DNA of 32,000 bases, from contig NC_022093.1 of assembly GCF_000446015.1 (NCBI RefSeq), positions 1,444,806-1,476,805 on the forward strand. Reading direction: 5' to 3'. A model generated the notes under the pieces. The model was given only the letters and a program-made list of their open reading frames with translations. It was not told the DNA's origin and ran no database searches. The stretch's first letter is position 1; each line of letters opens with the position of its first letter. Of the stretch, positions 1,077 through 17,894 are shown in pieces. A program made the position numbers and the translations under genes. This DNA comes from Thermofilum adornatum. Its GTDB lineage: Archaea > Thermoproteota > Thermoprotei > Thermofilales > Thermofilaceae.

Positions 1077-1229
1077 GCAAGTGTCGCTTGTTCAAAGTGT
1101 CTTCAGCGATCCCTCGGGCGTCTCCTGGAGATGGGGAAAACGTATTAGTGTTTAGTGTCGATGGGGGTTTGAATGTTGGTGACGGGTAGAGGTTTTAGGA
1201 GTGTGAGAGCTCTTTGATTATGGTGGCGT

Positions 1230-2525: not shown

Positions 2526-2762
2526 GGGTAATGGCGGTTTTAGGTGGGTTGGTCAGTTTGTGCTTATAGAAGGTGCTTCTTCCCTCTTTTGGACTAGGGG
2601 CAATTTGTTTTGGGTGAATTGTTGTTTTAGTGTTTCCCACAAGAACCACTGTTTGAGACGCGTGGCGAAAATAGTAGAGTGGAATGAGGGTGTGCTTCGA
2701 CTGAGAAGTGGACATGTTTTGCAGGGTGTGCCCCATGACAAGCTTTTAGGGGCGCTATGTGT

Positions 2763-3173: not shown

Positions 3174-3483
3174 GTCCTACCATGTTAATGGCCTAGATAA
3201 ATATAAGCCGATAGAAAGAAGAGTTCATGTCGTCGGCACGTGTTTGAATCCTAGGCATTACCAAAAGTGGGTTCAAAGGGCAGGAGGTTGCGCACTTTTA
3301 GCGAGCACTAAACTTGTTTATAGGGATGGTTTATACCTAAATATATGTAAATTTAAATTTAAATCCATCTTTGTGGTCGAACGCATAAGCTAGATCTAGT
3401 GTTTTGGCGATTGGTCGTCTCTGGCTTTGAAATAGCGCGCTATAACTGACTAATGTTTCTTATGTTGGGGAAGGGCGCGTTCC

Positions 3484-3491
3484 TTATATAT
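3484..3491 (+). promoter_or_regulatory. TATA-box candidate for the RelB-like gene
   Basis: TTATATAT lies about 31 nt upstream of the ATG at 3522, consistent with a leaderless or short-leader archaeal promoter. Confidence 0.35.
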
Positions 3492-3521
3492 TTGTTTTGG
3501 GTGGACGGTTTTAGGAGTATA

Positions 3522-3704
3522 ATGTCCGAGGTTGTGGGATTGTTGCAGGAAATAAGGGATGAGCTTAAAGAGCTGAGGCTCCTATATAAAAGTCTTGTTG
3601 ATAAACTTGTACCAGAGGAGGAGCCTCTTGAGGACGAGAAAGAGACTATTGAGTCTAGTGATGAAGTGGTAGGGGAGGATGAAGTTTTAAGGGTTTTTGG
3701 ATAA
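3522..3704 (+). CDS. small acidic coiled-coil protein, archaeal RelB-like antitoxin candidate
   Basis: MSEVVGLLQEIRDELKELRLLYKSLVDKLVPEEEPLEDEKETIE resembles my recollection of Pyrococcus aRelB (coiled-coil, then an acidic PEE-rich tail). I chose the internal ATG of track ORF 3453..3704 because of the TATA spacing. Confidence 0.45.
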   Translation: MSEVVGLLQEIRDELKELRLLYKSLVDKLVPEEEPLEDEKETIESSDEVVGEDEVLRVFG

Positions 3705-3748
3705 TGTTTCGGCTATAGGCTGAGAGGAGGGTACTGGAATAAATTGAG

Positions 3749-3838
3749 ATGCTTAATCCTTCGGTTAAAGCGAAGATCAAAGAGATACGGCTAACAATTA
3801 AAAAAGACCCTGTGTCTCATAAGAGGTTTGATTTTTAG
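3749..3838 (+). pseudogene. possible RelE/ParE-type toxin remnant (29 codons)
   Basis: MLNPSVKAKIKEIRLTIKKDPVSHKRFDF-stop. The position downstream of the RelB-like gene and the pattern K..I..I..DPV...FD resemble a RelE N-terminus. Far too short to be functional. Confidence 0.2.
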
Positions 3839-3940
3839 ATTAGTTAACGAGAAGGAGTGCCGCCTATTCTTAACGGATTTGAGGCATAAAATTAATTTTC
3901 CAGTACGTGTTATCGCGTTAGGATTGCTGTTTCTTCGTGG

Positions 3941-4399
3941 CTAGAGGTAGCCGTGGGTAGGCGAGTATACGTGTAGTTCTTTTAGGCTGTATCTCGCAGA
4001 TATTTGTCTCCATTTGTTCTTTATTTTCTTCCAGTCTTTTAGGTCTTCAGTGACTATGGTGTCGGCTCCAGAAGATATGGCTAGGGCAGCGTGTAGGGAA
4101 TCATATGTGACGCGCGCAGTGCGAGCTATTTCTCGTGCTAACTCTAGTGCTTCTAGGGAGGGTTCTATTAGCTTTATGGGGAGTGAAAGATATGCGAGTG
4201 AAGTTTCGTATGCTGCATCAACGCTATATTTGGAGAGAGCTCCAAATAACTCGAAGAGTACTAGTTTTGATCCGTAAGCTTCGAAATCTCCTGAGACGAG
4301 AGCTTCGAGTACATCGTGACACTTCGCGTAATAGTCTGGGAGTCTTGTTGCAACATAAATGAAGATGTTTGTGTCAATGTATACCTGCTTCCCTGTCAA
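3941..4399 (-). CDS. vapC: PIN-domain ribonuclease toxin VapC
   Basis: N-terminal VYIDTNIFIYV, then LVLFELF, TYDSLHAA and IVTEDLKD supply the four acidic PIN positions. It overlaps the upstream AbrB antitoxin gene by 26 nt. Confidence 0.85.
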   Translation of the reverse strand: MTGKQVYIDTNIFIYVATRLPDYYAKCHDVLEALVSGDFEAYGSKLVLFELFGALSKYSVDAAYETSLAYLSLPIKLIEPSLEALELAREIARTARVTYDSLHAALAISSGADTIVTEDLKDWKKIKNKWRQISARYSLKELHVYSPTHGYL

Positions 4400-4628
4400 G
4401 GGACTCTTCGACTAGTCTCACCGCGTTTATACGCCTCGGCCCAGCGAGGTAGCGGTCGGCTATGCTTTCGAGCCTTTCCAACGCTTCTCTGTATTTGATG
4501 GGCTGGAGGATTATTGCTCCTTTTTCTATTCTTACCATGAAGCGGTCTCCAGGCTTGATACCTAGTTTCTCTCTCACTTCCTCTGGTATCTCGACTTTGA
4601 AGTCGCTTGTCACTATAACTTCTTTCAC
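4374..4628 (-). CDS. vapB: AbrB/SpoVT-type antitoxin VapB
   Basis: KVEIPEEVREKLGIKPGDRFMVRIEKGAIILQP is the swapped-hairpin AbrB/SpoVT signature. It lies directly upstream of vapC and overlaps it. Confidence 0.8.
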   Translation of the reverse strand: MKEVIVTSDFKVEIPEEVREKLGIKPGDRFMVRIEKGAIILQPIKYREALERLESIADRYLAGPRRINAVRLVEESLDREAGIH

Positions 4629-4757
4629 GATTTGAAACTTGGTTTATTAGCTTACTTAAGTTTTCTCGTAGAAATTCAAAGACTGGGTACACTACTCTTG
4701 TAAAGACTCGATGGAACAGAAGTGCGACAAGAAACGTTGCATGCTTCACATTTCTAT

Positions 4758-4856
4758 ACGCGTTCGGGAAGCACAAGCCGGATATAAGTTGCGAGTCTCA
4801 CTTGAAGCTCTCTGAGAAGTATTTGGGGACCGAAAAATTTCTACCTGGGGAGCGTC
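4758..4856 (+). pseudogene. PaREP1 gene fragment (copy 8, internal ~100 nt only)
   Basis: It translates AFGKHKPDISCESHLKLSEKYLGTEKFLPGER, versus ALGESLDPDTSCELHLKLSEKYLREAEEFLARGDY in copy 7. Nucleotide similarity is visible. There is no start, and homology ends abruptly before hicB. Confidence 0.6.
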
Positions 4857-4923
4857 AGTGTCTCTTTTATTGATTAGCTTCATCACAAAATTATTAAATC
4901 AATTTGCATTCATGATTTTTAGT

Positions 4924-5142
4924 ATGGCTAGAAAGTTGAGGTTTACTATTATTTTGAGGAGGGAGGAGGAGGGCGGGTATTCTGCTCAGTGTTTGGAGTT
5001 GCCTGGATGTATTAGTGAGGGTGAGACTAGGGAGGAGGCACTTGAAAACATAAAGGAAGCTATCAGGGGCTATCTTGAGGCTTTCCCGGAGGAGGCAGAG
5101 AAACTAAAAGAAGAGAAGGAGCTGGTCGAGATAGTTGTCTAG
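4924..5142 (+). CDS. hicB: HicB-family antitoxin
   Basis: RFTIILRREEEGGYSAQCLELPGCISEGETREEALENIKEAIRGYLE is the classic HicB RNase-H-like N-domain motif. I chose the internal ATG of ORF 4858..5142. Confidence 0.8.
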   Translation: MARKLRFTIILRREEEGGYSAQCLELPGCISEGETREEALENIKEAIRGYLEAFPEEAEKLKEEKELVEIVV

Positions 5143-5359
5143 TAAACTCCCAATACTGTCTTGGCGAGAGGTTGTTAAGGCATTAAAGAAGGTTGGTTTT
5201 CGAATAGTCTATCAGAAGGGCAGTCACTTATACTTAACAGATGGTAAGCATAAACTCACTGTTCCTAGGCATGATGCCTTAAAGAGGGGCACCCTTCTCG
5301 CTATCATATATCAAGCTGGCCTAACAAAGGAGGAGTTCCTGAGGCTTTTAAGGGATTAG
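5135..5359 (+). CDS. hicA: HicA-family mRNA interferase toxin
   Basis: SWREVVKALKKVGFRIVYQKGSHLYLTDGKHKLTVPRH matches the HicA/YcfA dsRBD-like motif with the conserved GSH. The TTG start overlaps the hicB stop. Confidence 0.8.
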   Translation: MSSKLPILSWREVVKALKKVGFRIVYQKGSHLYLTDGKHKLTVPRHDALKRGTLLAIIYQAGLTKEEFLRLLRD

Positions 5360-5416
5360 GTTTTTTGTTCCAACTCGATGAGTGTTGTCAATTCATAGAT
5401 TACAAACGGCACGTGC

Positions 5417-5647
5417 TTAGCGCCAAGCTTCCCGTACCTTATCCAGCTCCCTTGTGAGCTCCTCGTAGGCTTCTCGGCCGACCGGCTGGCCGGGTTCTGG
5501 GAGATCGATTTTCTCAAGAATTACTTTGTCGTCTTCTTCCCAGACTGCCAGGATGTCGCCCTCTTTTATTCCTAGGGCTTTGCGGATTGGCAGGGGGATG
5601 GTGACTTGGCCCTTACGTGTGACCTTCACGTGGGTCTTGGGTCTCAT
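5417..5647 (-). CDS. AbrB/SpoVT-type antitoxin, orphan
   Basis: VKVTRKGQVTIPLPIRKALGIKEGDILAVWEEDDKVILEKI. No intact toxin ORF follows it. Confidence 0.75.
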   Translation of the reverse strand: MRPKTHVKVTRKGQVTIPLPIRKALGIKEGDILAVWEEDDKVILEKIDLPEPGQPVGREAYEELTRELDKVREAWR

Positions 5648-5689
5648 CCGCGGGAATAGCTCTTAGTGCTACTTTTTTAACTTTTTGTC

Positions 5690-6063
5690 ATCTTGGTACG
5701 GATCTTGGTCATCGGCGTTTCTGGGTTCTTCACTAGAGCGCTTAGGGAGCCGGCCTTGTCGCGTTGTCGGAGGAACTTGTGCTTCCCGTGATTGGGAAGA
5801 GGCTGTTTTTTGACCGCGGGTGTTCTGCGGAGCTTGATGAATATGTGGGGGTTGTGGAGGTTATAGGTAGGCAGTTTCATACCCATGTGCTTGTTTATGA
5901 CGTGCTAGATGTTGTGTTGATAGGTTTGACGGTCCTCGAGATCCTGAGTTTCGAAGTGGATCCGGTTACGGGGAAGCTTAGAAAAGGAAAGATATACTTG
6001 CCCATAGGGCTGGATAGCTGGGGACCCGCTATTGTTATTGTGGGGCTTCTTGTTCCTGTGTGA
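5690..6063 (+). pseudogene. decayed paralog of the retropepsin-like protease
   Basis: ELVLPVIGKRLFF...ELDEYVGVVEVIGRQ...LIGLTVLEILSFEVDPVTGKL aligns with residues ~45-120 of the 1230..1598 protein. Upstream, the RAL-VDAGA equivalent reads RAL-REPAL with in-frame stops, so the catalytic Asp segment is destroyed. Homology ends near 6000. Confidence 0.55.
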
Positions 6064-6523
6064 GTAGTGTTCTCAGTTTTCCTATGAGTTTGAGGGTTTG
6101 CTGTCTGTGTGCTTCGAAGTTGAGTGGGGATAGGAAGTTGCGGTAGTAGTTTGCGTGTAGGCGTTCTGTGTTTGCGAAGAGTGGCCCGAGGGGCTCTTTT
6201 AGCTGTTCGGAGAGCTTCTCCACAATGTCTGCGTAGTCCCTGTGGCTGTAATGCGGCCATTTTCTCTTCTCGGCGATGGCGTTGAGGAGGGCTGCTGTGG
6301 CTCCCCAGTATTTTTCTCCTGACTGTGGGAGGTAGCCCTTCTTGTAGAGTTCCTCGGCTTCGACGAGATACTTTTCGAAGAGCTCTAGATATTTTCTGGT
6401 TCCAGTTTTCGGAGATGTTGTATTGTTCTCCTTGCTCGCCATGTTTTTCTTAGCGTTATCTCCAGCTTCTCTAGGATGAGTAAAACTCTCTTGTTCTTTA
6501 ATCGTTCTACCATTGACAGCCAT
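6035..6523 (-). CDS. PaREP1-family protein (copy 4)
   Basis: YLELFEKYLVEAEELYKKGYLPQSGEKYWGATAALLNAIA ... ERLHANYYRNFL. A TTTTTATTA TATA-like box lies about 35 nt upstream of the ATG at 6523. The internal Met at 6442 is an alternative start. Confidence 0.65.
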   Translation of the reverse strand: MAVNGRTIKEQESFTHPREAGDNAKKNMASKENNTTSPKTGTRKYLELFEKYLVEAEELYKKGYLPQSGEKYWGATAALLNAIAEKRKWPHYSHRDYADIVEKLSEQLKEPLGPLFANTERLHANYYRNFLSPLNFEAHRQQTLKLIGKLRTLLTQEQEAPQ

Positions 6524-6724
6524 TTTTACGCTCTACAAATTTTGATGTTTCCTCTAATAAAAACCTTTGAGTTATATTTTGGCAATAGGAATATTGCTCT
6601 GCTTGTTGAAATCAATGAATGCATGCATGTGTTAGCGTCGCGCGCCGCCTGTAAGTAAGACACTAGGTACGGCTAGTAAGACTTTTTAAAAGGCTGAGAA
6701 GTTTTTAAATAAGGGGAGTAAAAT

Positions 6725-6961
6725 TTGTCTGAAATACTGGTATTGTTTGATGAGTATGATAAGAACTGGTCATGGTTTATGGAGCACTATGAAGAGCTTG
6801 CCGAAAGGTTTGATGGAGAATTTGTTGCCATATACCAGCAAAGGGTTGTAGACCATGAGAAGGATATTGGCTCTCTGATGAAGAGGATTAGGAAGAAGTA
6901 CCCTTTAGGCCAAGTCCTTGTGGAGTTTGTTAGTAAAGAGAAATTAGCCTTTATAATCTGA
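6725..6961 (+). CDS. small DUF5678-like protein
   Basis: W..F.EHYEELAERFDGEFVAIYQQRVVDHEKDIGSLMKRI matches my recollection of the DUF5678 pattern (W...Y.EL...Y.GkwVAI..g.VV..g.d). TTG start preceded by AGGGGAG. Confidence 0.45.
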   Translation: MSEILVLFDEYDKNWSWFMEHYEELAERFDGEFVAIYQQRVVDHEKDIGSLMKRIRKKYPLGQVLVEFVSKEKLAFII

Positions 6962-7068
6962 GGGTTGTCTGTAGTAGTGTTGCATGATGAACACATAGGC
7001 TCACATGGTGCGAGTTTCGGATTTTAAAAGAGTTTACCGAGATATTTATTTGCTTTCTCCAAGTAATT

Positions 7069-7341
7069 ATGCGTGTGCGGAGGAAGATTAGTGTGTATGT
7101 TGATGTGGAGCTTTGGGAGAGGTTTAAGAAGTACGCTGAGGAGAGAGATGCGGGGGCTAGTAGGCTTTTGGAGGAGCTGATACGGGAGGAGCTCGGGGAC
7201 TATGTTGACGAGGCTCTTGGCGCGCTGGCCGGCTCAGATAGCTACGAGCTAGGCTTTGATCCTGTGGAGCCTAAGGGTCCAGTGAGCCTGTTTGTTAGGG
7301 AGACGAGGGATGAGAGAGAGCGTGGCCTGCTTGGACAATAA
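7069..7341 (+). CDS. ribbon-helix-helix (CopG-like) antitoxin-type protein
   Basis: KISVYVDVELWERFKKYAEERDAGASRLLEELIREEL is an RHH strand-helix-turn-helix pattern. The extended C-terminal tail is typical of VapB-type antitoxins. No intact toxin follows. Confidence 0.7.
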   Translation: MRVRRKISVYVDVELWERFKKYAEERDAGASRLLEELIREELGDYVDEALGALAGSDSYELGFDPVEPKGPVSLFVRETRDERERGLLGQ

Positions 7342-7477
7342 GACAGTGTATTTGGGTTCGGGTCTATGTAGCTGTGACGGCGTTATGTGATTTAAGCCTG
7401 TTTTTGTTAATCTTTATCTTAGGGCTGTTGACTGTGATTCCACAAGTTTTATAAGGGCTTGTGGATTTATATTCCAC

Positions 7478-8713
7478 ATGGGTTTCCTTAGAGAGATAAC
7501 TGAGGAGTACCTGGGGGCGCTTAGGTATGTGAAGGAGGTTCCGAGGGACGTGGAGCTTCCCGTTGGTAGGGATATTGTTGCGCTTGTTGGGCCGAGGAGG
7601 GCTGGAAAGACGTTTTTGATGTTGAGGCATGCTAAGGACTTGCTGGACTCTGGGAAGCAGGCCCTCTACGTTTCGTTTGACGAGTTTCAGTTTCGAGGGA
7701 TTGATGCTAGGAAGCTTGCCGAGATGGCTAGAGAGGAGTATCCTAGTGGCGAGGTCTACTTGTTTCTTGACGAGGTTCAGGAGTGGGAGGGCTGGGACAG
7801 CAAGCTTCGCTGGCTACATGACGTGAAGGATTTCTTTTTGTATGTTACTGGGTCTTCGTCTGTTCTTCAGTCTTCTGAGATTCCGAGCAGGCTTAGGGGG
7901 CGTTATGTTTCTGTTCTTCTTCTCCCTTTTTCGTTTCGGGAGGTTTCTCGACAGGAGAAAGTTGACGTTGTAACTTTTAGGGAGAGGGGTGCTATTAGGG
8001 CACTGCTCAACGATTACATGACGTGGGGAGGCTTTCCTGAGGTTTGGATTTATAGGAGTAGGGAGAAGCTTGTCTCCCTGCTGGAGACGATGTTCTATAG
8101 GGATGTGATGGAGAGGCATAGGGTAAGGGATACCGCTGTTTTCTTGGAGGTTGCACGTCTCGTTATCTCTAGCTATTCGTGTCCTGTGACGTGGCACTCG
8201 ATTCGCAGGGCTTTGAAGTCTTCCGGGGTCAATATTGATGTGAAGACTGTTATGAGCTATGTGGAGTACATGAGGCAGGCCTACCTGGTTTTTCTCGTCA
8301 AGAGGTTCACGTATTCTGATAGGGAGGCCTTGGCGGCGCCTAAAAAGATATACCTCGTGGATCCGGGCATAGCCACGCTCCTAGAGAAGCCAATGGACAA
8401 GGGTAGGAGGGCTGAGAACCTTGTCTTCCTGGAGCTCGTGAGGAGGGGATACGAGCCGTACTACTATGTAACGAGGAGCGGCAAGGAGGTTGACTTCGTA
8501 ACGAAAAAGGAAAAAATGATTGTCGAGGTTGCTCTAGAGGACTGGGAGAAACATGTCGGAAAGGTTGCTGAAGCCGCGAGGGAGCTGGGGGTCAACGAGG
8601 CCACGATAATTACATGGGATGCAGAGGGAGAAGAAAAGGTTGGGAACCGCAGGGTAACAATAGTTCCTCTATGGAAGTGGTTGCTCCAAGAAACAACAAA
8701 AAACAAACCATAG
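7478..8713 (+). CDS. AAA ATPase of the AAA_14/DUF4143 type
   Basis: Walker A is GPRRAGKTF and Walker B is LFLDEVQ. The C-terminal ENLVFLELVRRGYEPYYYVTRSGKEVDFV...IVEVA resembles the nuclease-like tail of this family. Confidence 0.85.
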   Translation: MGFLREITEEYLGALRYVKEVPRDVELPVGRDIVALVGPRRAGKTFLMLRHAKDLLDSGKQALYVSFDEFQFRGIDARKLAEMAREEYPSGEVYLFLDEVQEWEGWDSKLRWLHDVKDFFLYVTGSSSVLQSSEIPSRLRGRYVSVLLLPFSFREVSRQEKVDVVTFRERGAIRALLNDYMTWGGFPEVWIYRSREKLVSLLETMFYRDVMERHRVRDTAVFLEVARLVISSYSCPVTWHSIRRALKSSGVNIDVKTVMSYVEYMRQAYLVFLVKRFTYSDREALAAPKKIYLVDPGIATLLEKPMDKGRRAENLVFLELVRRGYEPYYYVTRSGKEVDFVTKKEKMIVEVALEDWEKHVGKVAEAARELGVNEATIITWDAEGEEKVGNRRVTIVPLWKWLLQETTKNKP

Positions 8714-8827
8714 TTCACAGAACGGTTCTCATTATAGCGCGCGGTTTTGTACGTGTTTGACACACTAGCATGTAAGTACTGTGAAACTCTTGGATAATAC
8801 TAGGTCGACAAGCTTTATAACGAAAGG

Positions 8828-9325
8828 GTGGTGGTATTGGAGCTGGAGCTTGTTTTGTCCAGGGAGATTAAGAAAAAGCTTGGGGAAGTGTCTGTGAAGA
8901 TGGAGATCAGTATTGAGGGGCTCGCCTTGGATGCATTCAAGGGAATGAATGAAGGGATGGATCCTGCCGAGAGGGCAGAACTATATTTAAGGCTCTCTGA
9001 GAAGTATCTCAAGGACGGAGAGGAGCTGTTAGCTAAGGGGGACTGTGTTCAGGCTTCTGAGAAGCTTTGGGGCTCGGCGGCGCTTATGGTTAAGGCTCTT
9101 GCGGCTAGTAGGAGTGTCTCGGTCTCTTCTCATGGCGAGCTATTTAGCTATGTTAGGAGGCTGGGCGAAGAGCTGGGGAGCCCCGAGCTCAGGAGGCTCT
9201 TCTCTGTGGCTAGCACGTTGCACCAGAATTTCTATGAGAATTGGCTGAGTGGGGACGTTGTAAGAGAGTACGCGGAGGACGTGAAGCAGTTAGTTTGGGA
9301 GCTCAAGAAGCTGGTAAGATTCTAG
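8828..9325 (+). CDS. RHH-like + PaREP1 protein (copy 5)
   Basis: LYLRLSEKYLKDGEELLAKGDCVQASEKLWGSAALMVKALA...LHQNFYENW. The CTTTATAA box at 8813-8820 is only 8 nt from the ORF start, so the real start may be the TTG at 8855. Confidence 0.75.
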   Translation: MVVLELELVLSREIKKKLGEVSVKMEISIEGLALDAFKGMNEGMDPAERAELYLRLSEKYLKDGEELLAKGDCVQASEKLWGSAALMVKALAASRSVSVSSHGELFSYVRRLGEELGSPELRRLFSVASTLHQNFYENWLSGDVVREYAEDVKQLVWELKKLVRF

Positions 9326-9443
9326 CGCTGTTTATTCCCGCTGGAAGATATTCTTCGAGCAGTCCTTCCCACATGACTTTAAGATAGACTTTACCCAGTC
9401 CCGAAGCGTTTTTTTGATTGCTATGTATTCATTGAGAATGACT

Positions 9444-9683
9444 TTACTCTCTCTTGGCCCAAAACTTTTCCTCTTCTCTATCCAGTTCTTCCTCTGCTTC
9501 TTCGGCACTGCCCTGACAGCACTTCCATACTCTTCCCCAGAGGTCAAATGGCTCCAGCAGGATTTTGCCGTTTTCGACCCTTAGTTCTAGGAGGGTTCCT
9601 TCATCGATGCTAAGCATTTCTCTTATTCTCTTCGGTATAACAATGATACCCCTTTTATGTACCTTGATTATTGCCTTTTCCAT
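9444..9683 (-). CDS. AbrB/SpoVT-type antitoxin, orphan
   Basis: IKVHKRGIIVIPKRIREMLSIDEGTLLELRVENGKILLEP. Only a 37-codon tail with no PIN motifs follows, before the 3' end of PaREP1 copy 5. Confidence 0.75.
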   Translation of the reverse strand: MEKAIIKVHKRGIIVIPKRIREMLSIDEGTLLELRVENGKILLEPFDLWGRVWKCCQGSAEEAEEELDREEEKFWAKRE

Positions 9684-9935
9684 ATTACATCAACTCGTTG
9701 CTGGGGCTGACTTATAGCTTTAACCCTAAGTTGGATATGCGAGTTACTGGAATGGGTTCAAGCGCTGTTTTTAGATCAGAATTAAGTGGCTCAGTTGGGG
9801 ACGAAAAGTAGGACTCCTTCGGGTTTCCCTTCTCTTTACAAAGTTGATTCTAGTGGTCCCTTTTTTTGGGTTTTTCCTAGGTTAAGTTTTTCGTCAGGAG
9901 GTAGTCGTGGTACCTAGGGATTTATTTGTTTGAAG

Positions 9936-9943
9936 CTTTATAA
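9936..9943 (+). promoter_or_regulatory. TATA box of PaREP1 copy 6
   Basis: The CTTTATAA box ends 24 nt before the GTG at 9967. The same AAGCTTTATAA 11-mer also precedes copy 5 (8810-8820). Confidence 0.4.
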
Positions 9944-9966
9944 GTTAGAGTGATATTTCTATAACT

Positions 9967-10471
9967 GTGGAAAATGTAGTTTCGTTGGAGCTGTTTTTGC
10001 CTAAACGTATTGCTGAAAGGCTGAAAAAGGGAGTCCGAGAGGGTGGGAGCGTCAGAGGAGGAGCTTTTAGTTGAGGTTTTGTCGGAGAGGTTTGGTGAGC
10101 ATATCGACCCAGCATCAGAAGTCGAGATGCATTTGAGGTTGTCAGAAAAGGAGCTCATGGAGGCGGAGGAGCTTCTGAGGAAAGGAGACTATTTACAGGC
10201 GTCCGAAAAGGCATGGGGAGCCGCGGCCCAAATGGTTAAAGCCGTGGCGGCAAGGGAGGGGAGAACGATCAGGAGCCACGGTGAACTGCAACGGGAGGTT
10301 GCGAGGATCGTCAAGGAGACGGGAGACGAGGAGCTGAGAAGGCTTTGGCAGTCCGCCGGGATGCTTCACCAGAACTTCTACGAGAACTGGCTTCCACAAG
10401 AAATGGTTGAAGGGAACATTAGGGACGTAAAAAGGTTTATCGAGAAGCTGAGACAGCTTTTGAATTATTAG
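9967..10471 (+). pseudogene. RHH-like + PaREP1 gene (copy 6) with a frameshift in an A-run
   Basis: The frame from GTG 9967 gives ENVVSLELFLPKRIAERLKK and then runs into nonsense. The +1 frame continues RESERVGASEEELLVEVLSERF...LHQNFYENW (track ORF 10043..10471). One extra A in the A5 run at 10024-10028 would restore LKKRESERVGASEEEL, matching copies 2 and 7. Confidence 0.65.
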
Positions 10472-10487
10472 CGCGCGCTCGCGCTAA
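10468..10487. repeat. GC-rich hairpin/palindrome TTAGCGCG-CGCT-CGCGCTAA overlapping the stop of copy 6
   Basis: Perfect 8-bp arms with a 4-nt loop, read directly. It contains the recurrent 8-mer TAGCGCGC. Confidence 0.6.
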
Positions 10488-10550
10488 CTTGATGCTTAAC
10501 ACTTATATTGGGCTCAGCAGGAACATATACTATGGGTTTTTTTCATTGAT

Positions 10551-11018
10551 TTGCCTAGGAGGCTTGAAGAAAGGATAAGGAAGGAGTCTGAGAAGAGGGG
10601 TGTGTCAGAGGATGAGCTTGTTGTGAAGCTCTTGTCAGAGGCTCTTGGGGAGAGTCTTGATCCCGATACAAGTTGTGAGTTGCATTTGAAGCTCTCTGAG
10701 AAATATTTGAGGGAGGCAGAGGAATTCCTGGCTAGGGGTGACTATATGCAGGCATCTGAGAGGGCTTGGGGTGCAGCAGCTCAGATTGTTAAGGCGCTAG
10801 CCGCTAAGGAAGGGAGAGAGCTTAGGAGTCATGGGGAGTTGCATCGGTATGTCTCGAAGCTTAGCAGTGAGATGGATGATAGGGAGATATCGAGGCTCTG
10901 GCTCTCTGCTGTGTCTCTTCACCAGAATTTTTACGAGAATTGGCTTCCCGGGGAAATTGTTGAGGAGGGAGTAGAGAGTCTCAAGGAGTTTGTGGAAAAG
11001 TTGAGGAAGCTTTTGTAA
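10551..11018 (+). CDS. RHH-like + PaREP1 protein (copy 7)
   Basis: RRLEERIRKESEKRGVSEDELVVKLLSEAL, then HLKLSEKYLREAEEFLARGDYMQASERAWGAAAQIVKALA...LHQNFYENW. Confidence 0.8.
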   Translation: MPRRLEERIRKESEKRGVSEDELVVKLLSEALGESLDPDTSCELHLKLSEKYLREAEEFLARGDYMQASERAWGAAAQIVKALAAKEGRELRSHGELHRYVSKLSSEMDDREISRLWLSAVSLHQNFYENWLPGEIVEEGVESLKEFVEKLRKLL

Positions 11019-11092
11019 GTTCTTTGACGTGTTCTCGTGCCTCCGTAGACATTTGAGTCGAGTGCAACACACATGCTTTGAACTTTCTTGGT

Positions 11093-11193
11093 AGCCTTGT
11101 TCGAAAGGAGGAGCCTCTCGAAGATGAAAGGAAGGCTATAGAGTCTGGAGATGAGCTAGTCGGGAGGATGAGATTTTTAGGGTTCTCAGATAA
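11093..11193 (+). pseudogene. 3'-half remnant of a RelB-like gene paralog
   Basis: SLVRKEEPLEDERKAIESGDELVG aligns with SLVDKLVPEEEPLEDEKETIESSDEVVG of 3522..3704. The nucleotide alignment continues to a shared GATAA end but with a frameshift. It is fused in-frame by the ORF caller to the MNT gene. Confidence 0.4.
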
Positions 11194-11275
11194 AGTTTTG
11201 GCGAGTGGTGGGATGCGGGTTGCTCGGTTTAGCAGAAAACATATATGGATCTCCAAATGTAACTTCTTTGGAAAC

Positions 11276-11575
11276 ATGGAGGACATAAAGAAGATTATTG
11301 TCCCAGTATTGCGGCGCTATGGTGTGAGGAGAGCGGCTGTTTTTGGGTCTTTTGCTCGTGGGGAGGCTAGGGAGGATAGCGACTTGGATATTATTGTTGA
11401 ATTTGAGGAGGGTAGGAGCTTGCTGGACTTGGCTGGCTTAAAGGTTGAGCTAGAGGATGTTCTCGGCAGGAGAGTGGACATTGTTACGTATGGTTCCCTG
11501 CACCCACTTCTTAGGGAAAGAGTTCTTAAGGAGGAAAAGAGGATACTATGGGGAAAGACCCGAAAACAACCTTAG
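11276..11575 (+). CDS. minimal nucleotidyltransferase (MNT/MntA-type antitoxin)
   Basis: AAVFGSFARGEAREDSDLDIIVEF is an exact GSx10DxD motif, followed by RVDIVTY. I chose the internal ATG of ORF 11078..11575. Confidence 0.85.
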   Translation: MEDIKKIIVPVLRRYGVRRAAVFGSFARGEAREDSDLDIIVEFEEGRSLLDLAGLKVELEDVLGRRVDIVTYGSLHPLLRERVLKEEKRILWGKTRKQP

Positions 11576-11629
11576 GGACATACTTGAGAAAATTTGAATT
11601 AGAGAAAATACCTAGGGGATCATATTGGC

Positions 11630-11914
11630 ATGATTAAGAAAAAGCTTGTCTTCACTAAACACGCAAGGGAAGCTATCGTTAAAAGGGAGCTTGATGCAGA
11701 GTCAATACTTAATGCTATTCTAGCTCCAGATGAACTCTTCTGGGATAGGCGTTCAGGTTGCATGGTGGCTATTAAGAAAGACGACCTAGCACTTATTGTT
11801 GTTTATGAGGTGACAAATGAAAAATTCAGAGTGGTTACAGCATTTAAATCATCCAAGTTAGTTAAACTTATTAGGAGCAAGCTTAGCAAAGGATTCTGGG
11901 TAAAGATTCAATGA
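11630..11914 (+). CDS. DUF4258-like small protein (putative toxin)
   Basis: LVFTKHAREAIVKRELDAESILNAI matches the T.HA..R...R.I pattern of DUF4258. It is ATGA-coupled to the downstream DUF2283 gene. Confidence 0.55.
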   Translation: MIKKKLVFTKHAREAIVKRELDAESILNAILAPDELFWDRRSGCMVAIKKDDLALIVVYEVTNEKFRVVTAFKSSKLVKLIRSKLSKGFWVKIQ

Positions 11915-12153
11915 GGGTGAGGTACGACAAAAGACACGATATACTTTATATCGATGTCGCCCCGGGCAAGAAGGCACGCGAGACACAGCCATTGAACGAT
12001 GATATCTTTGTGGATCTCGATGAGGAGGGGAACATTGTGGGTATAGAGATTTGGAACGCCTCCGAGAACATTGTAGAGGCGCTTGCGGAGCCACTGATAG
12101 AGAAGGTGAAGAAATCGCTTGAAAAATCTGTCATGGCAGGAAAAGGTTCATAG
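11911..12153 (+). CDS. DUF2283-family small protein (putative antitoxin)
   Basis: MRVRYDKRHDILYIDV...DDIFVDLDEEGNIVGIEIWNAS is the characteristic DUF2283 pattern (YD...D.LYI......v.vD.d..G.ivGIEi..AS). Confidence 0.7.
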   Translation: MRVRYDKRHDILYIDVAPGKKARETQPLNDDIFVDLDEEGNIVGIEIWNASENIVEALAEPLIEKVKKSLEKSVMAGKGS

Positions 12154-12378
12154 TAATATGTGGGGAATTTTTGGTGTAAGTTTCCCGTTGATAGTTCCGT
12201 CGTGAAATTCAGTCTTTTTCGAAATTGAAGGGTACGTAGAGGCCGGTGTATCTATTCTTAGTATAAGAGAAAGAATTAAGGTAAAAAGAGTGATATTTGA
12301 ACGATAACATAAAAATTGGTTTACAAATTCTTTATTAAAATAAAACAATTTTTGCCAGAATAGGATTGAAAGAACGTT

Positions 12379-12404
12379 GAGTAAATATTTAAATATATTT
12401 ACTC
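12379..12404. promoter_or_regulatory. inverted repeat GAGTAAATAT-TTAAAT-ATATTTACTC enclosing a TTTAAATA TATA box
   Basis: Perfect 10-bp arms read directly. The consensus-like archaeal TATA TTTAAATA (12388-12395) sits in the centre. Confidence 0.4.
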
Positions 12405-12576
12405 GTTTATGTTAAACCAAATAGAAAAATAAATTAAGCTGTGATAGTGATGCAGAGAACCAAAAACTCGGCATCCCTGCTTTTAAAGCTTCTTGAAACA
12501 GACACGGTGAGGTTAGAAGCCGCTGAGAAAAAAATTAGAAAAAATATCGCGTAGTCGTTCAGAAAGTGGGGAGAAG

Positions 12577-13017
12577 TTGTCTTCGGGCTTGGGTAGTTGG
12601 AGGGAGGGCCTCGAAGAGCTCATAAAGTTGCTGGAGGACACGTGTAGCAGTATGGGTAGCCTTAATGCTGACAAGCTCTTGGAAATCCTGGGTCTCGTGG
12701 GTAGGTTGGAGAGAATGCTTGAAACGGGGTCTCAGCAGGCTTTGGGGTCTGGCGGCCCTGCTAAAGGAAGCTTGGAGAGTGACGGCTTGCTTTTGATCAG
12801 GGAATACGTCAAGGAGGCTGTCTATAGGTTTTCGGCTGGCGACGACGCTGGGAGTGTTCTGGCCGAGGCTCTGAGTGTCGCAAATGCTTTGCGGGATCTA
12901 GGCGCGCTTGCTGAGAGGGGGGTAGAAATTATACGTCCCAAGGATCTGGTGGTTGTAGGGTATATCGATGGGAAGCCGGTCTACTCGTTTAGGCAGGGAA
13001 ATAGTCCTAATAGATAA
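12577..13017 (+). CDS. hypothetical protein, no recognisable family
   Basis: 146-codon ORF with a TTG start after GTGGGGAG. The N-half looks helical and the C-terminus strand-like. Codon usage resembles its neighbours. Confidence 0.5.
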   Translation: MSSGLGSWREGLEELIKLLEDTCSSMGSLNADKLLEILGLVGRLERMLETGSQQALGSGGPAKGSLESDGLLLIREYVKEAVYRFSAGDDAGSVLAEALSVANALRDLGALAERGVEIIRPKDLVVVGYIDGKPVYSFRQGNSPNR

Positions 13018-13528
13018 GGAGCCCGAGAAGGTTTTCATCGAGAAAACGGGCGATAGGGAGATACACTATTTTTACTGGAGACTTGACCTATACAAGCCCT
13101 TCGACTATGAGCCTGTCACCTTGCTTGACGGCTTTCTGTGTTCCCGTTACCATTGGAAAGGGCTTGTCCTCTGGACCGAGCCAGTTGTTAGGGACAAACC
13201 TTTGATGACTTTTGCCTTGGGGGTTCACACGCCACTTGTATACTCGAGGAAGTGGCAAGTCTTTGTGGTTTATTGCCTTCCAGAGCTTACTCTTAGTGAG
13301 AGTTTCTGGCTTGGCTTTTACTTGACTATATTTAACGCATTACTTAAGGGTATGATAAAGCTCCCAAGCGATAAGGCTTTCCACGGCTACATGGATAAGG
13401 CTGTGGAGGGCAAGGTTCCAGAGGAATACAGGTTCAGGCTTAAGGAGTGGACCTTTCTCATCATTGTGGGGTCTCTACCAGAGAAACTGCCAAGTGCTGT
13501 GTCGGACAGGCTAAGGGAGTGCGGATAG
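12968..13528 (+). CDS. hypothetical protein, no recognisable family; overlaps the previous ORF by 50 nt
   Basis: 186-codon ORF. There is no alternative start codon in frame until about 13120, so either the overlap is real or the two ORFs are one frameshifted gene. Confidence 0.5.
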   Translation: MGSRSTRLGREIVLIDKEPEKVFIEKTGDREIHYFYWRLDLYKPFDYEPVTLLDGFLCSRYHWKGLVLWTEPVVRDKPLMTFALGVHTPLVYSRKWQVFVVYCLPELTLSESFWLGFYLTIFNALLKGMIKLPSDKAFHGYMDKAVEGKVPEEYRFRLKEWTFLIIVGSLPEKLPSAVSDRLRECG

Positions 13529-13623
13529 GCTCTTCTAACGCTGTTTTGTCTAGCTTAAACAGCCTTGTTTGCTGGATGAGATTGGAGTTGGGTATTGTTT
13601 TCTTATGTTGACAAATTGAGGAT

Positions 13624-14487
13624 ATGTTGCTTTGGGCAAATTTTATTTCTTGTATTCGCAAAGAGCTATGTGTGGAGATTAGGAGCTTGGTGTCGCAGGC
13701 CTGGGAGAGCCTTAACAAGGTGAAAGAGCTAGTTGGTTCTGGAGTTTCCAGTGATCTGGAGGTGGCCGCTTTAAGATGGTATCTTTATTCTCTGCATCAG
13801 AATGTTCTTGACGCTTTAGCTTCTCTGATTTCTGAGGCTGGGCTGAGGAAGCCGGGTTCCTACGCGGAGCTGGCGAAGCCTTTGGCTGAAAAGGGCTTAG
13901 TATCTGAATGGTTTGCTTGTGAGGTGGCGAGGATGGCAAGGACTGGGAATCTGCTTGCGCATGCCTATCGGAGGGTTCCCAGGGAGGAACTCGTAGAGAT
14001 TGGAAACCGGGTCTTTGGGACAGCTCCAGCGCTGCTGGAGACAATAATCAAGCTAGCTGAGAGGCTTGGGGTTGATCCGCCTCATGAGAATGCGTCGAGT
14101 GATATGATAGCAGTTTTTAAGCAGTATCCGGGGATAATTGCTGTTCTGCTTTTTGGCAGTAGGGCTCGGGGCGACTATAGGCCTGACAGCGACTATGATA
14201 TTGCTGTCCTAGCGGAAAAACCGCTGGAACTGAGAGAGCTGGAAGAAATGGCCCTAGAGATGGCTGACTTGCTAGGAGTTCCAGCCGACAGGGTTGACAT
14301 TGTTGACCTGCAGGTTGCCCCTAACGAGTTGCTCTACAAGGTTATTAGGGACTATGTTCCTATATATGTTTCTGACAATGAAAGGTTTAAGAGGTGGGTC
14401 TCTGAAAACTATATAAGGGTTCTCGACGAGGAAGAATCTCTTAAGGAAACCTATTACATTCGCTTAAAGAAGAAGCTCAGGCAATGA
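13624..14487 (+). CDS. single-chain HEPN (DUF86-like) + MNT nucleotidyltransferase fusion
   Basis: The N-half has GSYAELAKPLAEKGLVSEWFACEVARMARTGNLLAHAY, a DUF86 layout with R-x6-H followed by Y. The C-half has AVLLFGSRARGDYRPDSDYDIAVL, an exact GSx10DxD, plus RVDIVDL. Confidence 0.75.
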   Translation: MLLWANFISCIRKELCVEIRSLVSQAWESLNKVKELVGSGVSSDLEVAALRWYLYSLHQNVLDALASLISEAGLRKPGSYAELAKPLAEKGLVSEWFACEVARMARTGNLLAHAYRRVPREELVEIGNRVFGTAPALLETIIKLAERLGVDPPHENASSDMIAVFKQYPGIIAVLLFGSRARGDYRPDSDYDIAVLAEKPLELRELEEMALEMADLLGVPADRVDIVDLQVAPNELLYKVIRDYVPIYVSDNERFKRWVSENYIRVLDEEESLKETYYIRLKKKLRQ

Positions 14488-14661
14488 ATCTCTTAGTCTT
14501 AAAAGTAACAGTGCTGGGTGTATGTAAGGGAAAATATTTTGCGAAAAGTAAATATTTGTTTACGTAGGTTTATTCGCGTAATTTAGGGCGAGGCGTGTAG
14601 GGATGCAGGGATGCAGTGACACGTCAGACATGTTCAATGTTTTTTCTCTGGTGGTAACACT

Positions 14662-15894
14662 ATGCTCGACACCGCTTGCCTGCTAGGGATTGCCAGGTTA
14701 CTGTATGTGCTATTGTCTTCTCTGAGCACCTTTACACTCTTCCTTATACTTCTATGGACTGTTTACCATACTCCTATTGTCCTTGCCGCGGTGTTTTCTA
14801 GGAGGGACAAAGACGACCCGCCCGGAGACAATTATTTGCCTAGGGTCAGCGTGATTATACCCGTCAAGAACGATGTGAGTATTGCTGAGCGTTCTCTAAG
14901 GTCCGTGGCTGTTCAAGATTATCCACGCGACAAGATCGAGGTTGTCGTCGTAGATGGCTCCAGCGATGACGTCTCTGAAAAAATAAAAGCCAGCATTCAA
15001 GGCTTCCCTTTGGACGTCAAATACATAAGGGAGGATACGCCAAACGGGAAGCCCTCAGCGCTCAACCGTGGATTAAGGCATGTTTCAGGAGAGCTGGTGG
15101 CTGTGCTGGACGCAGACAACGTGCTTGAACCAGACGCCTTTAGGAACGCTGTAAAGTACTTCTCTGACCCAACAGTAGGGGCAGTACAGGGGGTCATCGA
15201 CCCCTTGAATGAGAAAGAGTCTATCTGGACGAGGATAGCTTCAAAGGAAGAGAAGCTCTGGAACAGGGTTCTTCTCCTCGGCAGGGCCCGGCTTGGCCTC
15301 TTTACGCCGCTTAGCGGAAGCTGTTATTTTGTCTCGCGCAGGGCTCTTCAAGAGATTGGCGGTTTTCCTAATACCCTAGCGGAAGACCTTGACCTGTCCC
15401 TGAGCCTATTGAAAAAGGGCTACAGGGTTGTATACGCCGAGGATGTGAGGGGCAAGTGGGAGACGCCTAAAACGCTTGGGGCGCTTGTCGTGCAGCGTAG
15501 GAGGTGGTATAGGGGCTACCTTGAGTCGTTTTTTAGGAACTGGAGGATAATTGGGCCAGATAGGAGGCGCTTGGACGCAGAAGTAGTTATGGCTGGACCA
15601 CTTCTTCTCGTTCTAAGCTTTTTAACAATCATGTGGTGGCTTCTCATAACGACGCTCGGCCTCCCGAAACTTAACGGTGATATATCAGCGTATATTGTTA
15701 CCTCTTTGAATTTCTTCACTGTTCTCACAGTGGGATCGGCCTTGTCGTTTGGCGAGAAGCCTCGCCGCTTGACAAACATCGCATGGATACCCATTGTGTA
15801 TGCGTATTGGTTGACAATGATGAGTGTTGCTCTTTGGGCTTTTCTCGGGGTATTGTTCAGGAGGCCTGCCAAGTGGGAGAGGACTCCCAAGTAA
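14662..15894 (+). CDS. membrane-embedded family-2 glycosyltransferase, processive synthase type
   Basis: N-terminal TM pair, then VVVDGSSDD, LDADN (DxD), LAEDLDL (ED) and QRRRW (QxxRW), then three to four C-terminal TM helices. This architecture resembles NodC/PgaC/IcaA/HAS-class synthases. Confidence 0.85.
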   Translation: MLDTACLLGIARLLYVLLSSLSTFTLFLILLWTVYHTPIVLAAVFSRRDKDDPPGDNYLPRVSVIIPVKNDVSIAERSLRSVAVQDYPRDKIEVVVVDGSSDDVSEKIKASIQGFPLDVKYIREDTPNGKPSALNRGLRHVSGELVAVLDADNVLEPDAFRNAVKYFSDPTVGAVQGVIDPLNEKESIWTRIASKEEKLWNRVLLLGRARLGLFTPLSGSCYFVSRRALQEIGGFPNTLAEDLDLSLSLLKKGYRVVYAEDVRGKWETPKTLGALVVQRRRWYRGYLESFFRNWRIIGPDRRRLDAEVVMAGPLLLVLSFLTIMWWLLITTLGLPKLNGDISAYIVTSLNFFTVLTVGSALSFGEKPRRLTNIAWIPIVYAYWLTMMSVALWAFLGVLFRRPAKWERTPK

Positions 15895-15914
15895 AGTTAT
15901 AAATGTTATAGTTT

Positions 15915-17894
15915 TTGGAAAATGTGGCTTGGTGTATGGCACGCGGCCCTACTGAGAAGATGATTGCGGCAATGCTGGTCTTGTTGCTAGTTGTTTACAC
16001 ACAGACGTCGACTGTGACGCATCATGTAGCCGTGGAAGTTAAGGCTGAGCCACTGGTGGACTGGCTTGAGCTTGCTAGGTCTGCTTGGAACTACTTTCAG
16101 CCCGGGGTTGGTCTTAGCAGTCTAGGCTTAAATTATGCCTCTATATCGTGGCACTATTTGACTGACTGGGATCTTGGATGCTATATTTCTGCGATTGTTG
16201 ATGCCGAGGCTCTCGGCTTAGTGGATAAAGAAGGAACAATGGGTAGTGATGCTAGAATAAGGAAAGTGCTGAATTTCCTTGCTACTCGCCCCCTACACCC
16301 AAGCGGGGTCCCCTACGGTGTTTATGATGCAGACACGGGTGAGCCAGGGACAACTAGCCCATCGAACCCCAGCGACGCGGGACGTCTTCTTATAGCTCTT
16401 TACCGGCTGAAGCAACACAGACCGGAGTTTTCAAACTATATCGACTATGTCGTGGAGAGGAATGGTATGTTAAAGTTTGCTGGTGGGGTTCCTAATAACG
16501 GTTTTTACTCTTATTACTATGCTTACGGCTACTACTTGTGGGGTGCGAGAACCAGGCAAGTCAACGATGCTCTGAACGTGCTTTCAACACTTAGGTCTAA
16601 ACAGGTGGTTGACGCTTACGGGGTAAAGCTTCCCTTTGTAGAGATAACGATGGAGCCAATACTCTACTCGATCTTTGAGCTAAGCTTGCCTGAGGATTTC
16701 TTTTACTGGGCGAACCTGACACTCCAGGCACAATTTAACAGGTACAAGGCAACGGGGAAGCTGACAGCGTTTACTGAAGGAAACCTTGCAGTACCACCCT
16801 ACTACATATACGAGTGGATAGTCGACATTTACACTGGGAAAACCTTTACTTTATGGAGTCCTTCTATGGGGCACACCAGCTTGACTCCTGTTGTATTTAC
16901 CAAGGCGGCCATAGGCATGCATGCAATATGGGAAAATGAGTATACGTCACTACTTTTAAACTATGTCATGAAAGCAAAGACACCAAATGGCTTCTATGAG
17001 GGTGTTGACGAGAACGGTAACATAATCTACATTATGACTGATAAAACGAATAGCCTAATTATTAACGCCGCCAGGTACGCACTACAAAAGGCTAAGCCGC
17101 CTTCACTCGTTGTACAGGAGACCTTAGAGACTTTTCCAGGCGAATCTGTGACTCTACCTGTCCTTGTTAACCATTCGCTCTCGCTACCCGTGCATCTAAA
17201 CGTCTCGTCTGGGATAGAAGGTCTCACATTATCCTTACAAAACTCTTCTGGGAAAACCCCTCTAAAAACAAATCTTACAATTACAGTTTACAACATGATT
17301 AGGCCAGGCTCTTATCAAGTAATCATCCTTGCCACTTCCCCACTTGCCAAGCCCGTAAACAGGACTTTGACTGTTATCGTGAAACCTCCAGGATATACAT
17401 TGAAGATAAAAGCTCTCAATGCCTGTGGAGAGCCCGCGTCGAACGTAACCATAGTTCTAGGAGACTTCAAGGGACTCACGGCCCGAGACGGGACACTGAC
17501 ATTTCGACATCTCAACGGCACCTATATGTTGTATGCGTTTCTAGGGAGAGTACAGGTGGCCGACCCAACAACTATAACAATCTCCTCAGACACGGAGCTC
17601 ACACTTAAGCTCAAACTATACAAGGTTCTCATAGATGCCAAGACTACCAAGGGGACACCCGCTGAGGGCATCATTCTTAGGGCTTTTGTTGACGACCAAT
17701 TCTTGTCCTATGCAAAAACCAATAGTAGCGGGCTAGCGGTTCTCAAAAACATTCCGCCAGGAAACATAACAGTAAAGGCTTACTCGAGTGACGGGAAAAT
17801 AGAACTAGGTAGCTGGAGCATAACTGTGCGGGGAGACGTTGACGTGGTCGACCCAGAGATAGTTGTTCCCGAGATAGGAAAAATAGAGGCATAA
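15915..17894 (+). CDS. secreted or anchored sequon-rich protein: aromatic-rich N-domain plus two carboxypeptidase-regulatory-like beta repeats
   Basis: Hydrophobic signal/anchor MIAAMLVLLLVVYTQTS and about ten N-x-S/T sequons. Repeats YTLKIKALNACGEPASNVTIVLGD...DGTLTFRHLNGTYMLYAF and YKVLIDAKTTKGTPAEGIILRAF...SGLAVLKNIPPGNITVKAY fit the CarboxypepD_reg-like pattern. The function of the N-domain was not identified. Confidence 0.6.
   Translation: MENVAWCMARGPTEKMIAAMLVLLLVVYTQTSTVTHHVAVEVKAEPLVDWLELARSAWNYFQPGVGLSSLGLNYASISWHYLTDWDLGCYISAIVDAEALGLVDKEGTMGSDARIRKVLNFLATRPLHPSGVPYGVYDADTGEPGTTSPSNPSDAGRLLIALYRLKQHRPEFSNYIDYVVERNGMLKFAGGVPNNGFYSYYYAYGYYLWGARTRQVNDALNVLSTLRSKQVVDAYGVKLPFVEITMEPILYSIFELSLPEDFFYWANLTLQAQFNRYKATGKLTAFTEGNLAVPPYYIYEWIVDIYTGKTFTLWSPSMGHTSLTPVVFTKAAIGMHAIWENEYTSLLLNYVMKAKTPNGFYEGVDENGNIIYIMTDKTNSLIINAARYALQKAKPPSLVVQETLETFPGESVTLPVLVNHSLSLPVHLNVSSGIEGLTLSLQNSSGKTPLKTNLTITVYNMIRPGSYQVIILATSPLAKPVNRTLTVIVKPPGYTLKIKALNACGEPASNVTIVLGDFKGLTARDGTLTFRHLNGTYMLYAFLGRVQVADPTTITISSDTELTLKLKLYKVLIDAKTTKGTPAEGIILRAFVDDQFLSYAKTNSSGLAVLKNIPPGNITVKAYSSDGKIELGSWSITVRGDVDVVDPEIVVPEIGKIEA

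Follow-up and report, generated by a model that had tools for sequence, protein, structure and literature searches.

The locus described here lies in a stretch of 32,000 nucleotides of Thermofilum adornatum DNA (contig NC_022093.1, positions 1,444,806 to 1,476,805; the whole stretch is called the window, and positions are counted from its first letter). It consists of two open reading frames (ORFs), A and B, which overlap on the + strand, and its closest described counterparts are of several kinds. Type II toxin-antitoxin (TA) operons such as MazEF and VapBC (with AbrB-type VapB) share with it two small co-directional genes, the upstream overlapping the downstream, an upstream protein that in relatives combines a DNA-binding domain (MazE/AbrB or MarR) with a second one, and a patchy occurrence among TA and defence genes with frequent decay of the downstream gene. 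They differ from it in three respects: A and B are unrelated in sequence or predicted fold to known toxins and antitoxins, the proposed neutralising domain of A is large and folded (four helices in a bundle, and a hairpin), and the A-B overlap measures 29-68 nt as against 1-4 nt. In Escherichia coli infC, an AUU near-cognate start limits or regulates expression. B resembles this gene in many relatives, where ATT or ACG stands at canonical spacing behind a Shine-Dalgarno (SD)-like motif and where the dosage of B probably must stay low; it differs in that its use of ATT and ACG is read from sequence alone. Programmed frameshift genes (prfB with a +1 shift, the orfA/orfB genes of the IS3 family with a -1 shift, and dnaX) likewise have two overlapping frames on one strand, an upstream part that sometimes has a DNA-binding domain (as IS3 OrfA does) and, as in some A-B lineages, a downstream frame with no canonical start. 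HepT-MntA, a type VII TA system, is present in the same island and on the same strand as A-B, but no relation of A to HEPN/PaREP1 is detectable, B is not a nucleotidyltransferase, and the linkage is not conserved. More than 80% of gene overlaps are under 30 bp, and those of 4 or 1 nt dominate (PMC12548453, PMC10666635). In the coat-lysis overlap of phages fr and MS2, as in A-B, the second gene starts tens of nucleotides before the first one ends (34 nt in fr; PMC10666635, PMC12548453) and coupled expression is plausible. What sets A-B apart from such coupled pairs is that its long overlaps are conserved across phyla while the start codon varies between ATG, GTG, TTG, ATT and ACG.

An earlier note on this DNA had offered three accounts of the pair (a coupled overlap of unusual length, one frameshifted gene of about 316 aa, or a programmed shift) and had seen it as the head of a new module with a downstream HEPN-MNT gene. 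The evidence supports the first of the three: A and B are, with little room for doubt, two genes whose overlap is native. The locus is laid out as follows.

12577-13017, + strand: ORF A, 146 aa counted from TTG, of the 'A-domain' family; proposed antitoxin or adaptor
12968-13528, + strand: ORF B, 186 aa counted from ATG, beta-rich; proposed effector or toxin
12968-13017, + strand: A/B overlap, 50 nt in both ORFs
12946-12990, + strand: DNA coding for the C-terminal beta-hairpin of A (residues 124-138, DLVVVGYIDGKPVYSF), conserved, which holds the start of B
12998-13015, + strand: first conserved strand of B, EIVLID (residues 11-16), the anchor for comparing the junction across the family
13103-13234, + strand: DNA coding for conserved residues of B, namely D46, E48 and P49 (13103-13114), R60 and H62 (13145-13153), and H87, T88 and P89 (13226-13234), together the candidate active site

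B is read in the +1 frame relative to A. Its frame opens only at 12959, three codons before the ATG at 12968, which is therefore its sole canonical start, and 12959-13014 is open in both frames. ORF and frame analysis thus confirmed the coordinates, the 50-nt overlap, the +1 frame and the single canonical start that had been noted before. The start (gATGgg) is embedded in Asp-Gly codons of the A hairpin. The TAA of A arises from the Asp-Lys codons of B (gaTAAg), so that A after YSF, its last eight codons (RQGNSPNR), is a mere out-of-frame shadow of the conserved EIVLIDK of B; the first 10 codons of B are in turn a shadow of GKPVYSF in A. Residues encoded by the overlap are predicted to be disordered in both proteins, with a low predicted local distance difference test (pLDDT) score for residues 142-146 of A and 1-7 of B.

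A search with the hypothetical joined A+B protein returned 16 proteins, and every match was confined to the B half. These close homologs of B (177-205 aa; from Thermofilum, Korarchaeota and Bathyarchaeota) are collinear with B, their N-termini aligning with it from the first residues. On their contigs, upstream ORFs of 134-178 aa overlap the B homologs by 50, 56 or 38 nt; these ORFs are homologs of A (35-37% identity) and have in common the motifs LIREYxKEA and GVxII..DLxVVGxIDG(K/R)P(V/I)YS(I/F). An exhaustive profile search with B gave 126 cluster representatives, none of them an intact A-B fusion, and a profile search with A gave 40 proteins (81-242 aa), in many of which a MarR domain forms the N-terminus; fusion to B was absent from all 44 A-family proteins (these 40 and four from a subtype search described below). 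The lone in-frame join, P0093, is a 145-aa fragment that carries further frame errors. The homologs are therefore split throughout, as separate proteins on both sides, and the idea of a frameshifted gene of about 316 aa falls with that. On sequence comparison A and B are two conserved families, always encoded apart and almost always together. They range over Thermofilales, Bathyarchaeia, Korarchaeota and Nitrososphaeria (Thermoproteota), with a patchy distribution across these four lineages, and no relative of B was found among the viral contigs of IMG/VR that would suggest a viral origin. The ORFs had been called family-less. This holds for curated libraries, since neither A nor B has a match in Pfam, NCBIfam, PADLOC, PHROGs or the PDB sequences, and it does not hold in general, because both own many unannotated homologs. 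Pfam searches of 52 B members at E <= 1 gave no recurrent family, the single match to DUF3990 (E 0.0097) being within chance.

The overlap is neither chance nor assembly error, since the identical A/B junction is found in more than 10 independent assemblies of close relatives and an A-like ORF upstream of and overlapping B recurs in 42 sequence clusters. The same observations bear on the possibility that a frameshift mutation or a sequencing error has split what was one gene. Two family-less ORFs overlapping in different frames are what such a pseudogene or artefact would look like, and A of the window has lost its ATG by deletion (see below). Set against the recurrence of the junction, the separate conservation of both halves, never fused, and the purifying selection on B (dN/dS 0.08-0.28, because of which we also take B to be expressed), the broken-gene explanation is effectively refuted and retains next to no probability.

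The junction was compared across 51 loci (33 sequence clusters) with an intact B and a readable junction, out of 8 genomic and 64 metagenomic loci plus further ones that were looked up. The comparison bears on a programmed ribosomal frameshift, +1 in the window, that would read A into B and give a fusion of about 316 aa, alone or beside free A. Several features of the locus would suit such a shift: B lies in the +1 frame with a stretch of 59 nt open in both frames, joining the frames at 12988-12997 connects two strand-like segments, 12 of the 33 clusters have no canonical B start despite purifying selection on B, and in L006 and the L018 group a +1 shift at the TGA of A would give an exact ...YSI(KRR)-EIV... 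join. Across the family, however, the frame of B relative to the upstream gene is +1 in 19 clusters (window included) and -1 (+2) in the other 14. Measured from the first base of the EIV strand of B, the A stop can lie as much as 8 nt upstream or as much as 47 nt downstream, and a shift at the stop of the window would remove that strand. The spacing from the YS motif of A to the EIV of B varies by 0-6 codons. In the -1 clusters the upstream protein ends ...LGRARVFRVK, and its TAG lies within the first conserved strand of B (sequence ATAG). Layout and C-terminal motif are common to the upstream proteins of both groups; homology between them is weakly supported (hhalign E 0.0037, probability 9%), whereas B is clearly homologous in both.

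A programmed shift is disfavoured because its direction and its site would have to differ between clades. The junction DNA of the 33 clusters shares no slippery heptamer, no stable RNA structure was found at 12925-13040 (fold z = 0.20), and Rfam gave no match at the junction at E <= 1. A-B thus differs from the known programmed frameshift genes in having no conserved slippery site, stimulator, constant frame relation or fused homolog, and also in having SD-plus-start signals for the B frame: clusters with no canonical start carry GGAGG + 8 nt + ATT or GGAGGTG + 7 nt + ACG, which points to initiation, and B of the window has a normal ATG that is conserved in its clade. These comparisons show that there is no frameshift in the window, and we consider a programmed shift very improbable for the family. 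The heptamer TTT AGG C was considered as a +1 site like the CUU AGG C of Ty1 and was ruled out, as the motif is not conserved in other clades. AGG seems by eye, uncounted, to be a frequent codon in these genes. In the close relative L021 the C-terminus of A reads VYSLRQ, with Leu for Phe at the junction; any mimicry of the yeast Ty1 +1 heptamer CUU-AGG-C there would depend on which codon encodes the Leu.

How B is started differs between lineages. In 16 of the 19 +1-frame clusters an ATG, GTG or TTG lies 4-23 codons ahead of the EIV strand, which gives overlaps of 29-68 nt, and distant B homologs start 2-4 residues ahead of the strand. In the 12 clusters that have no ATG, GTG or TTG for B at or ahead of the strand, the first canonical codon comes 11-71 codons later (mostly +32 to +71), and a start there would remove the invariant HYFYW and DYEP motifs of B. 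Purifying selection on the codons ahead of the first canonical start is strong: pN/pS is 0.06-0.21 for seven of the eight pairs compared and 0.40 for the pair that diverges most. This stretch is therefore translated. GGAGG + 8 nt + ATT in the B frame is present in 10 of the 14 clusters of the -1 group. In a subclade of the +1 group one homologous codon after GGAGGTG + 7 nt is ATG (L035), GTG (L027) or ACG (L028-L032), and -1 clusters having GTG show the stop/start arrangement TAGTG or GTGA. The most economical reading is that in the lineages with no canonical start B would be initiated, led by the SD-like motif, at weak near-cognate codons, possibly aided by ribosomes translating A. These SD-like signals are not independent evidence, because they are embedded in a conserved protein motif of A, and recoding is conceivable in these lineages. 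The hallmark of termination-reinitiation, a stop and start within -4 or -1, is absent from the window, where the B start sits 47 nt upstream of the A stop. A review of archaeal initiation gives AUG, GUG and UUG alone as start codons, so that the use of ATT or ACG would be unusual (PMC7531240). About 15 of the 126 B representatives are only 124-153 aa long and start at profile positions 51-70 (for example P0070, P0072, P0075, P0078, P0079, P0082, P0087 and P0099); these short database entries are probably gene-caller truncations that result from the missing canonical start.

The structural model of B, made with 17 sequences, has a pLDDT of 84 and a predicted template modelling score (pTM) of 0.82. 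Eight strands span residues 14-102 and are followed by a long helix (109-126); a small alpha/beta part and a terminal helix complete the model. Foldseek found no match for it in the PDB or BFVD (best E 0.2-0.3). Over the 52 diverse members, D46, E48, P49, R60 and P89 are invariant, and F35, H62, F82, H87 and Y141 are nearly so. This pattern of conservation suggests that B is an enzyme, for which D46, E48, R60, H62 and H87 form a candidate active site.

The model of A (pLDDT 70.7) has four helices (3-25, 31-55, 61-86 and 91-113) and a C-terminal hairpin (124-130 and 133-138), and gave no specific fold match. A degenerate HEPN/PaREP1 domain was considered for A and rejected (hhalign probability 0.2%). 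Relatives have the A domain at the C-terminal end of longer proteins, joined to MarR winged-helix domains in many cases, to other winged-helix-like regions, to ankyrin repeats (Ank) and, in L032, to MazE_antitoxin/AbrB (E 2.8e-13); L018 has a separate MarR gene upstream instead of a fused domain.

Two further partners of the A domain were seen once each. At L038 1945-4026 (the same as L087 2981-5062) it extends a full-length thermosome (Cpn60_TCP1, E 3.6e-175; 693 aa in the JGI call) at the C-terminus, in frame and with no stop between the two, and at L042 1-981 it is joined to an FtsZ C-terminal domain (FtsZ_C). B overlaps downstream in both contigs. A search with the thermosome-linked A subtype returned four proteins only, of 209-211 aa, and no further fusion; because of this the thermosome link was not adopted as a function and is treated as unexplained. 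At L085 515-3167 a distant B homolog, P0105, begins 49 nt after a gene for a thermosome paralog of 641 aa, in which an A domain cannot be recognised and about 100 aa of helical sequence are inserted; downstream, on the opposite strand, comes a GmrSD_N gene.

What the pair does is suggested by its partners and its setting, and we put the chances at even that A-B is a TA-like two-gene cassette. Five observations point that way: relatives of A carry DNA-binding domains of antitoxin type (MazE/AbrB, MarR), the order of the genes and their tight linkage in translation suit such a module, TA and defence genes lie around the pair, loss of the downstream gene B has recurred, and the distribution is patchy across four archaeal lineages. 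Judged by what defines type II TA systems, A and B are adjacent, co-directional small genes arranged as one unit (a 50-nt overlap in the window, the arrangement recurring in 42 clusters), and they show the patchiness, the location in TA/defence islands and the frequent loss of the proposed toxin gene, B being broken with A intact in at least eight independent loci. Several points weigh against such a function. Some of these disruptions of B could be metagenome assembly errors. Neither A nor B resembles a known toxin, antitoxin or defence protein, whether in Pfam, NCBIfam, PADLOC, PHROGs, PDB sequences and folds, or BFVD. A of the window itself has no DNA-binding domain, the B ATG of the window has no good SD-like motif, and TA-type genes make up about one tenth of immediate neighbours, mostly in Thermofilales loci. 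The A domain is also joined to ankyrin repeats, a thermosome and an FtsZ C-terminus, which would suit a general adaptor equally, and the toxicity of B and its binding by A are themselves inferred.

The main rival is a non-toxic heteromeric complex in which A would be a portable C-terminal adaptor that brings the enzyme B to the fusion partner of A, the whole acting as a regulatory or modifying module. We regard it as possible but rather doubtful. The diversity of N-terminal partners of the A domain (MarR, MazE/AbrB, Ank, Cpn60_TCP1, FtsZ_C), the second B homolog directly after a thermosome paralog in L085 and the strong conservation of B would fit it, and subunits of heteromeric complexes are over-represented among overlapping gene pairs (PMC10666635). 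However, the thermosome and FtsZ fusions are single cases and the recurrent partners are DNA-binding domains of antitoxin type; B decays repeatedly while A is kept; and the distribution is patchy, often among TA and defence genes.

The analysis shows A and B to be separate genes of a conserved, self-contained cassette, with the overlap as its native arrangement. B is made from the same transcript as A, at a site passed by the ribosomes that translate A, because its start lies in the part of A that codes for the hairpin. In the TA-like reading, we suggest that A would be the neutralising partner, with a regulatory role where it carries a DNA-binding domain, and that B would be an enzyme-like effector with D46, E48, R60, H62 and H87 as its active site, the two working in the manner of type II toxin-antitoxin partners. 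The output of B would be held low and tied to that of A by initiation signals that are weak or buried (an ATG with a poor SD-like motif in the window, SD with ATT or ACG in many relatives). The kind of system is a known one, a small overlapping two-gene cassette that is probably TA-like. The two families, the fold of B, the conserved long overlap and the widespread absence of a canonical start are undescribed in the libraries searched. The earlier idea of an undescribed system thus survives, as the two-gene A-B cassette and not as a module with HEPN-MNT. A more far-reaching proposal, which we offer tentatively and think somewhat unlikely in its entirety, is that A-B would be an undescribed TA-like family of Thermoproteota whose effector is new in both fold and catalytic centre (D, E, R, H, H) and is translated with no ATG, GTG or TTG in about one third of lineages, from an SD-led ATT or ACG inside the hairpin of its partner.

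The DNA upstream of A in the window has been altered by a deletion, to which the following features belong.

12379-12404, + strand: palindrome GAGTAAATAT-N6-ATATTTACTC, a perfect 10-nt inverted repeat around a TTTAAATA TATA-like box
12450-12554, + strand: remnant ORF of 34 codons, the first 29 being those of the intact 233-aa gene of L001
12535-12543, no strand assigned: deletion junction, where about 1.5 kb of the DNA of relatives is gone

Compared with the Thermofilum contig L001 (2434-4075), the window is identical over 12340-12535 (L001 2434-2629) and then diverges, jumping past 12535 to about codon 10 of A; a deletion of about 1.5 kb therefore took place. It took most of the 233-aa gene, whose product in L001 begins MQRTKNSASLLLKLLETDTVRLEAAEKKI, together with an Asp_protease_2 gene, the promoter of A and the first codons of A with the ATG. 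In relatives A starts at an ATG 20 codons upstream, MSVRQKSRRISRSRSESGEK-LSSGLG, and this ATG is gone in the window, where the 29 remnant codons are joined out of frame to A. The start of A in the window is thus uncertain, the ATG being lost; it is probably the TTG at 12577, now the first canonical start, 22 nt past the stop of the remnant ORF. The palindrome, which occurs once in the window against none expected by chance, also lies upstream of the intact 233-aa gene in L001, L002, L003 and L022, and through the deletion it has become the closest promoter-like element ahead of A-B. The palindrome is real; what had been described as an operator-caged promoter with a small ORF represents the promoter and opening 29 codons of another gene, now deleted. 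A-B of the window now sits behind the promoter of a neighbouring gene and its 34-codon remnant. Small retropepsin-like Asp_protease_2 genes recur near A-B (L001 3490-3840, L017 2965-3354, L018 9331-9654), and in L017 the gene occupies the expected place of B, right after a MarR-A gene with a damaged C-terminus.

The earlier note had also placed A-B in one module with the gene that follows it.

13624-14487, + strand: HEPN-MNT fusion gene, starting 95 nt past B

Its product is one 287-aa polypeptide with an N-terminal HepT-like (HEPN) and a C-terminal MntA-like (MNT) domain; the NCBIfam score of the MntA part is above the 60-bit cut-off (77) and that of the HepT part below it (34 vs 60). In this fusion a single chain holds both partners of a type VII TA pair, toxin and antitoxin. 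A three-gene system of A, B and this gene could be argued from the shared strand, the 95-nt gap and the order A, B, HepT-MNT, which is kept in the close relatives L001, L002 and L021. The gene trails B only in close Thermofilum relatives, however, and beyond that clade the gene past B is unrelated (ParE-like in L004, nothing relevant in L006, various genes in other loci). HepT-MntA is, moreover, already a complete TA pair alone. We surveyed two ORFs on each side of A-B in 35 loci, 133 ORFs in all, and found no constant third gene among them. The immediate neighbours include PaREP1, NTP_transf_2/Polbeta, DUF2283 and Asp_protease_2 (four each), PIN (three), and HepT and Cas3 (two each), with HepT and NTP_transf_2 together in only two of the 133. 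The module with HEPN-MNT therefore found no support in this survey, and we rate a three-gene system as highly unlikely.

Across loci the neighbours include PaREP1/HEPN, MNT, DUF2283, PIN, ParE, Gp49, cas genes and GmrSD. In L016 (5001-6070), and also in L015, L080, L081 and L083, MarR-A is intact, and B is truncated and carries a 4-nt deletion common to these loci; the MarR-A/B pair of L016 stands directly after cas3 and csaX genes. In the window, directly upstream of the locus, are two more TA-like pairs.

10551-11018 and 11078-11575, + strand: PaREP1/HEPN gene with MNT gene
11630-11914 and 11911-12153, + strand: DUF4258 gene with DUF2283 gene, overlapping by 4 nt

As a test for a mobile element, terminal inverted repeats were sought around A-B, and only weak pairs at chance level were found. 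The + strand GC skew is strongly positive over 1-16000 (0.1-0.37 per kb) and about zero beyond 17 kb, which coincides with the run of + strand genes.

For annotation, what looked like a frameshift is resolved into a conserved gene architecture, so that such ORFs should be neither merged nor discarded. Two protein families are defined (B with about 126 representatives) that are absent from Pfam, NCBIfam, PADLOC, PHROGs and PDB, and B combines a confidently predicted fold of no detectable relative with a clear candidate active site. The family also includes archaeal genes under purifying selection that have no canonical start, which gene callers shorten by 30-70 codons, and with this set of B genes it can be tested whether archaea initiate at near-cognate codons (ATT/ACG) or rely on translational coupling. 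If our reading of these starts is true, the SD-led ATT and ACG codons would be a hard-wired brake that holds the effector below its partner, and also a naturally occurring example of near-cognate initiation among archaea.

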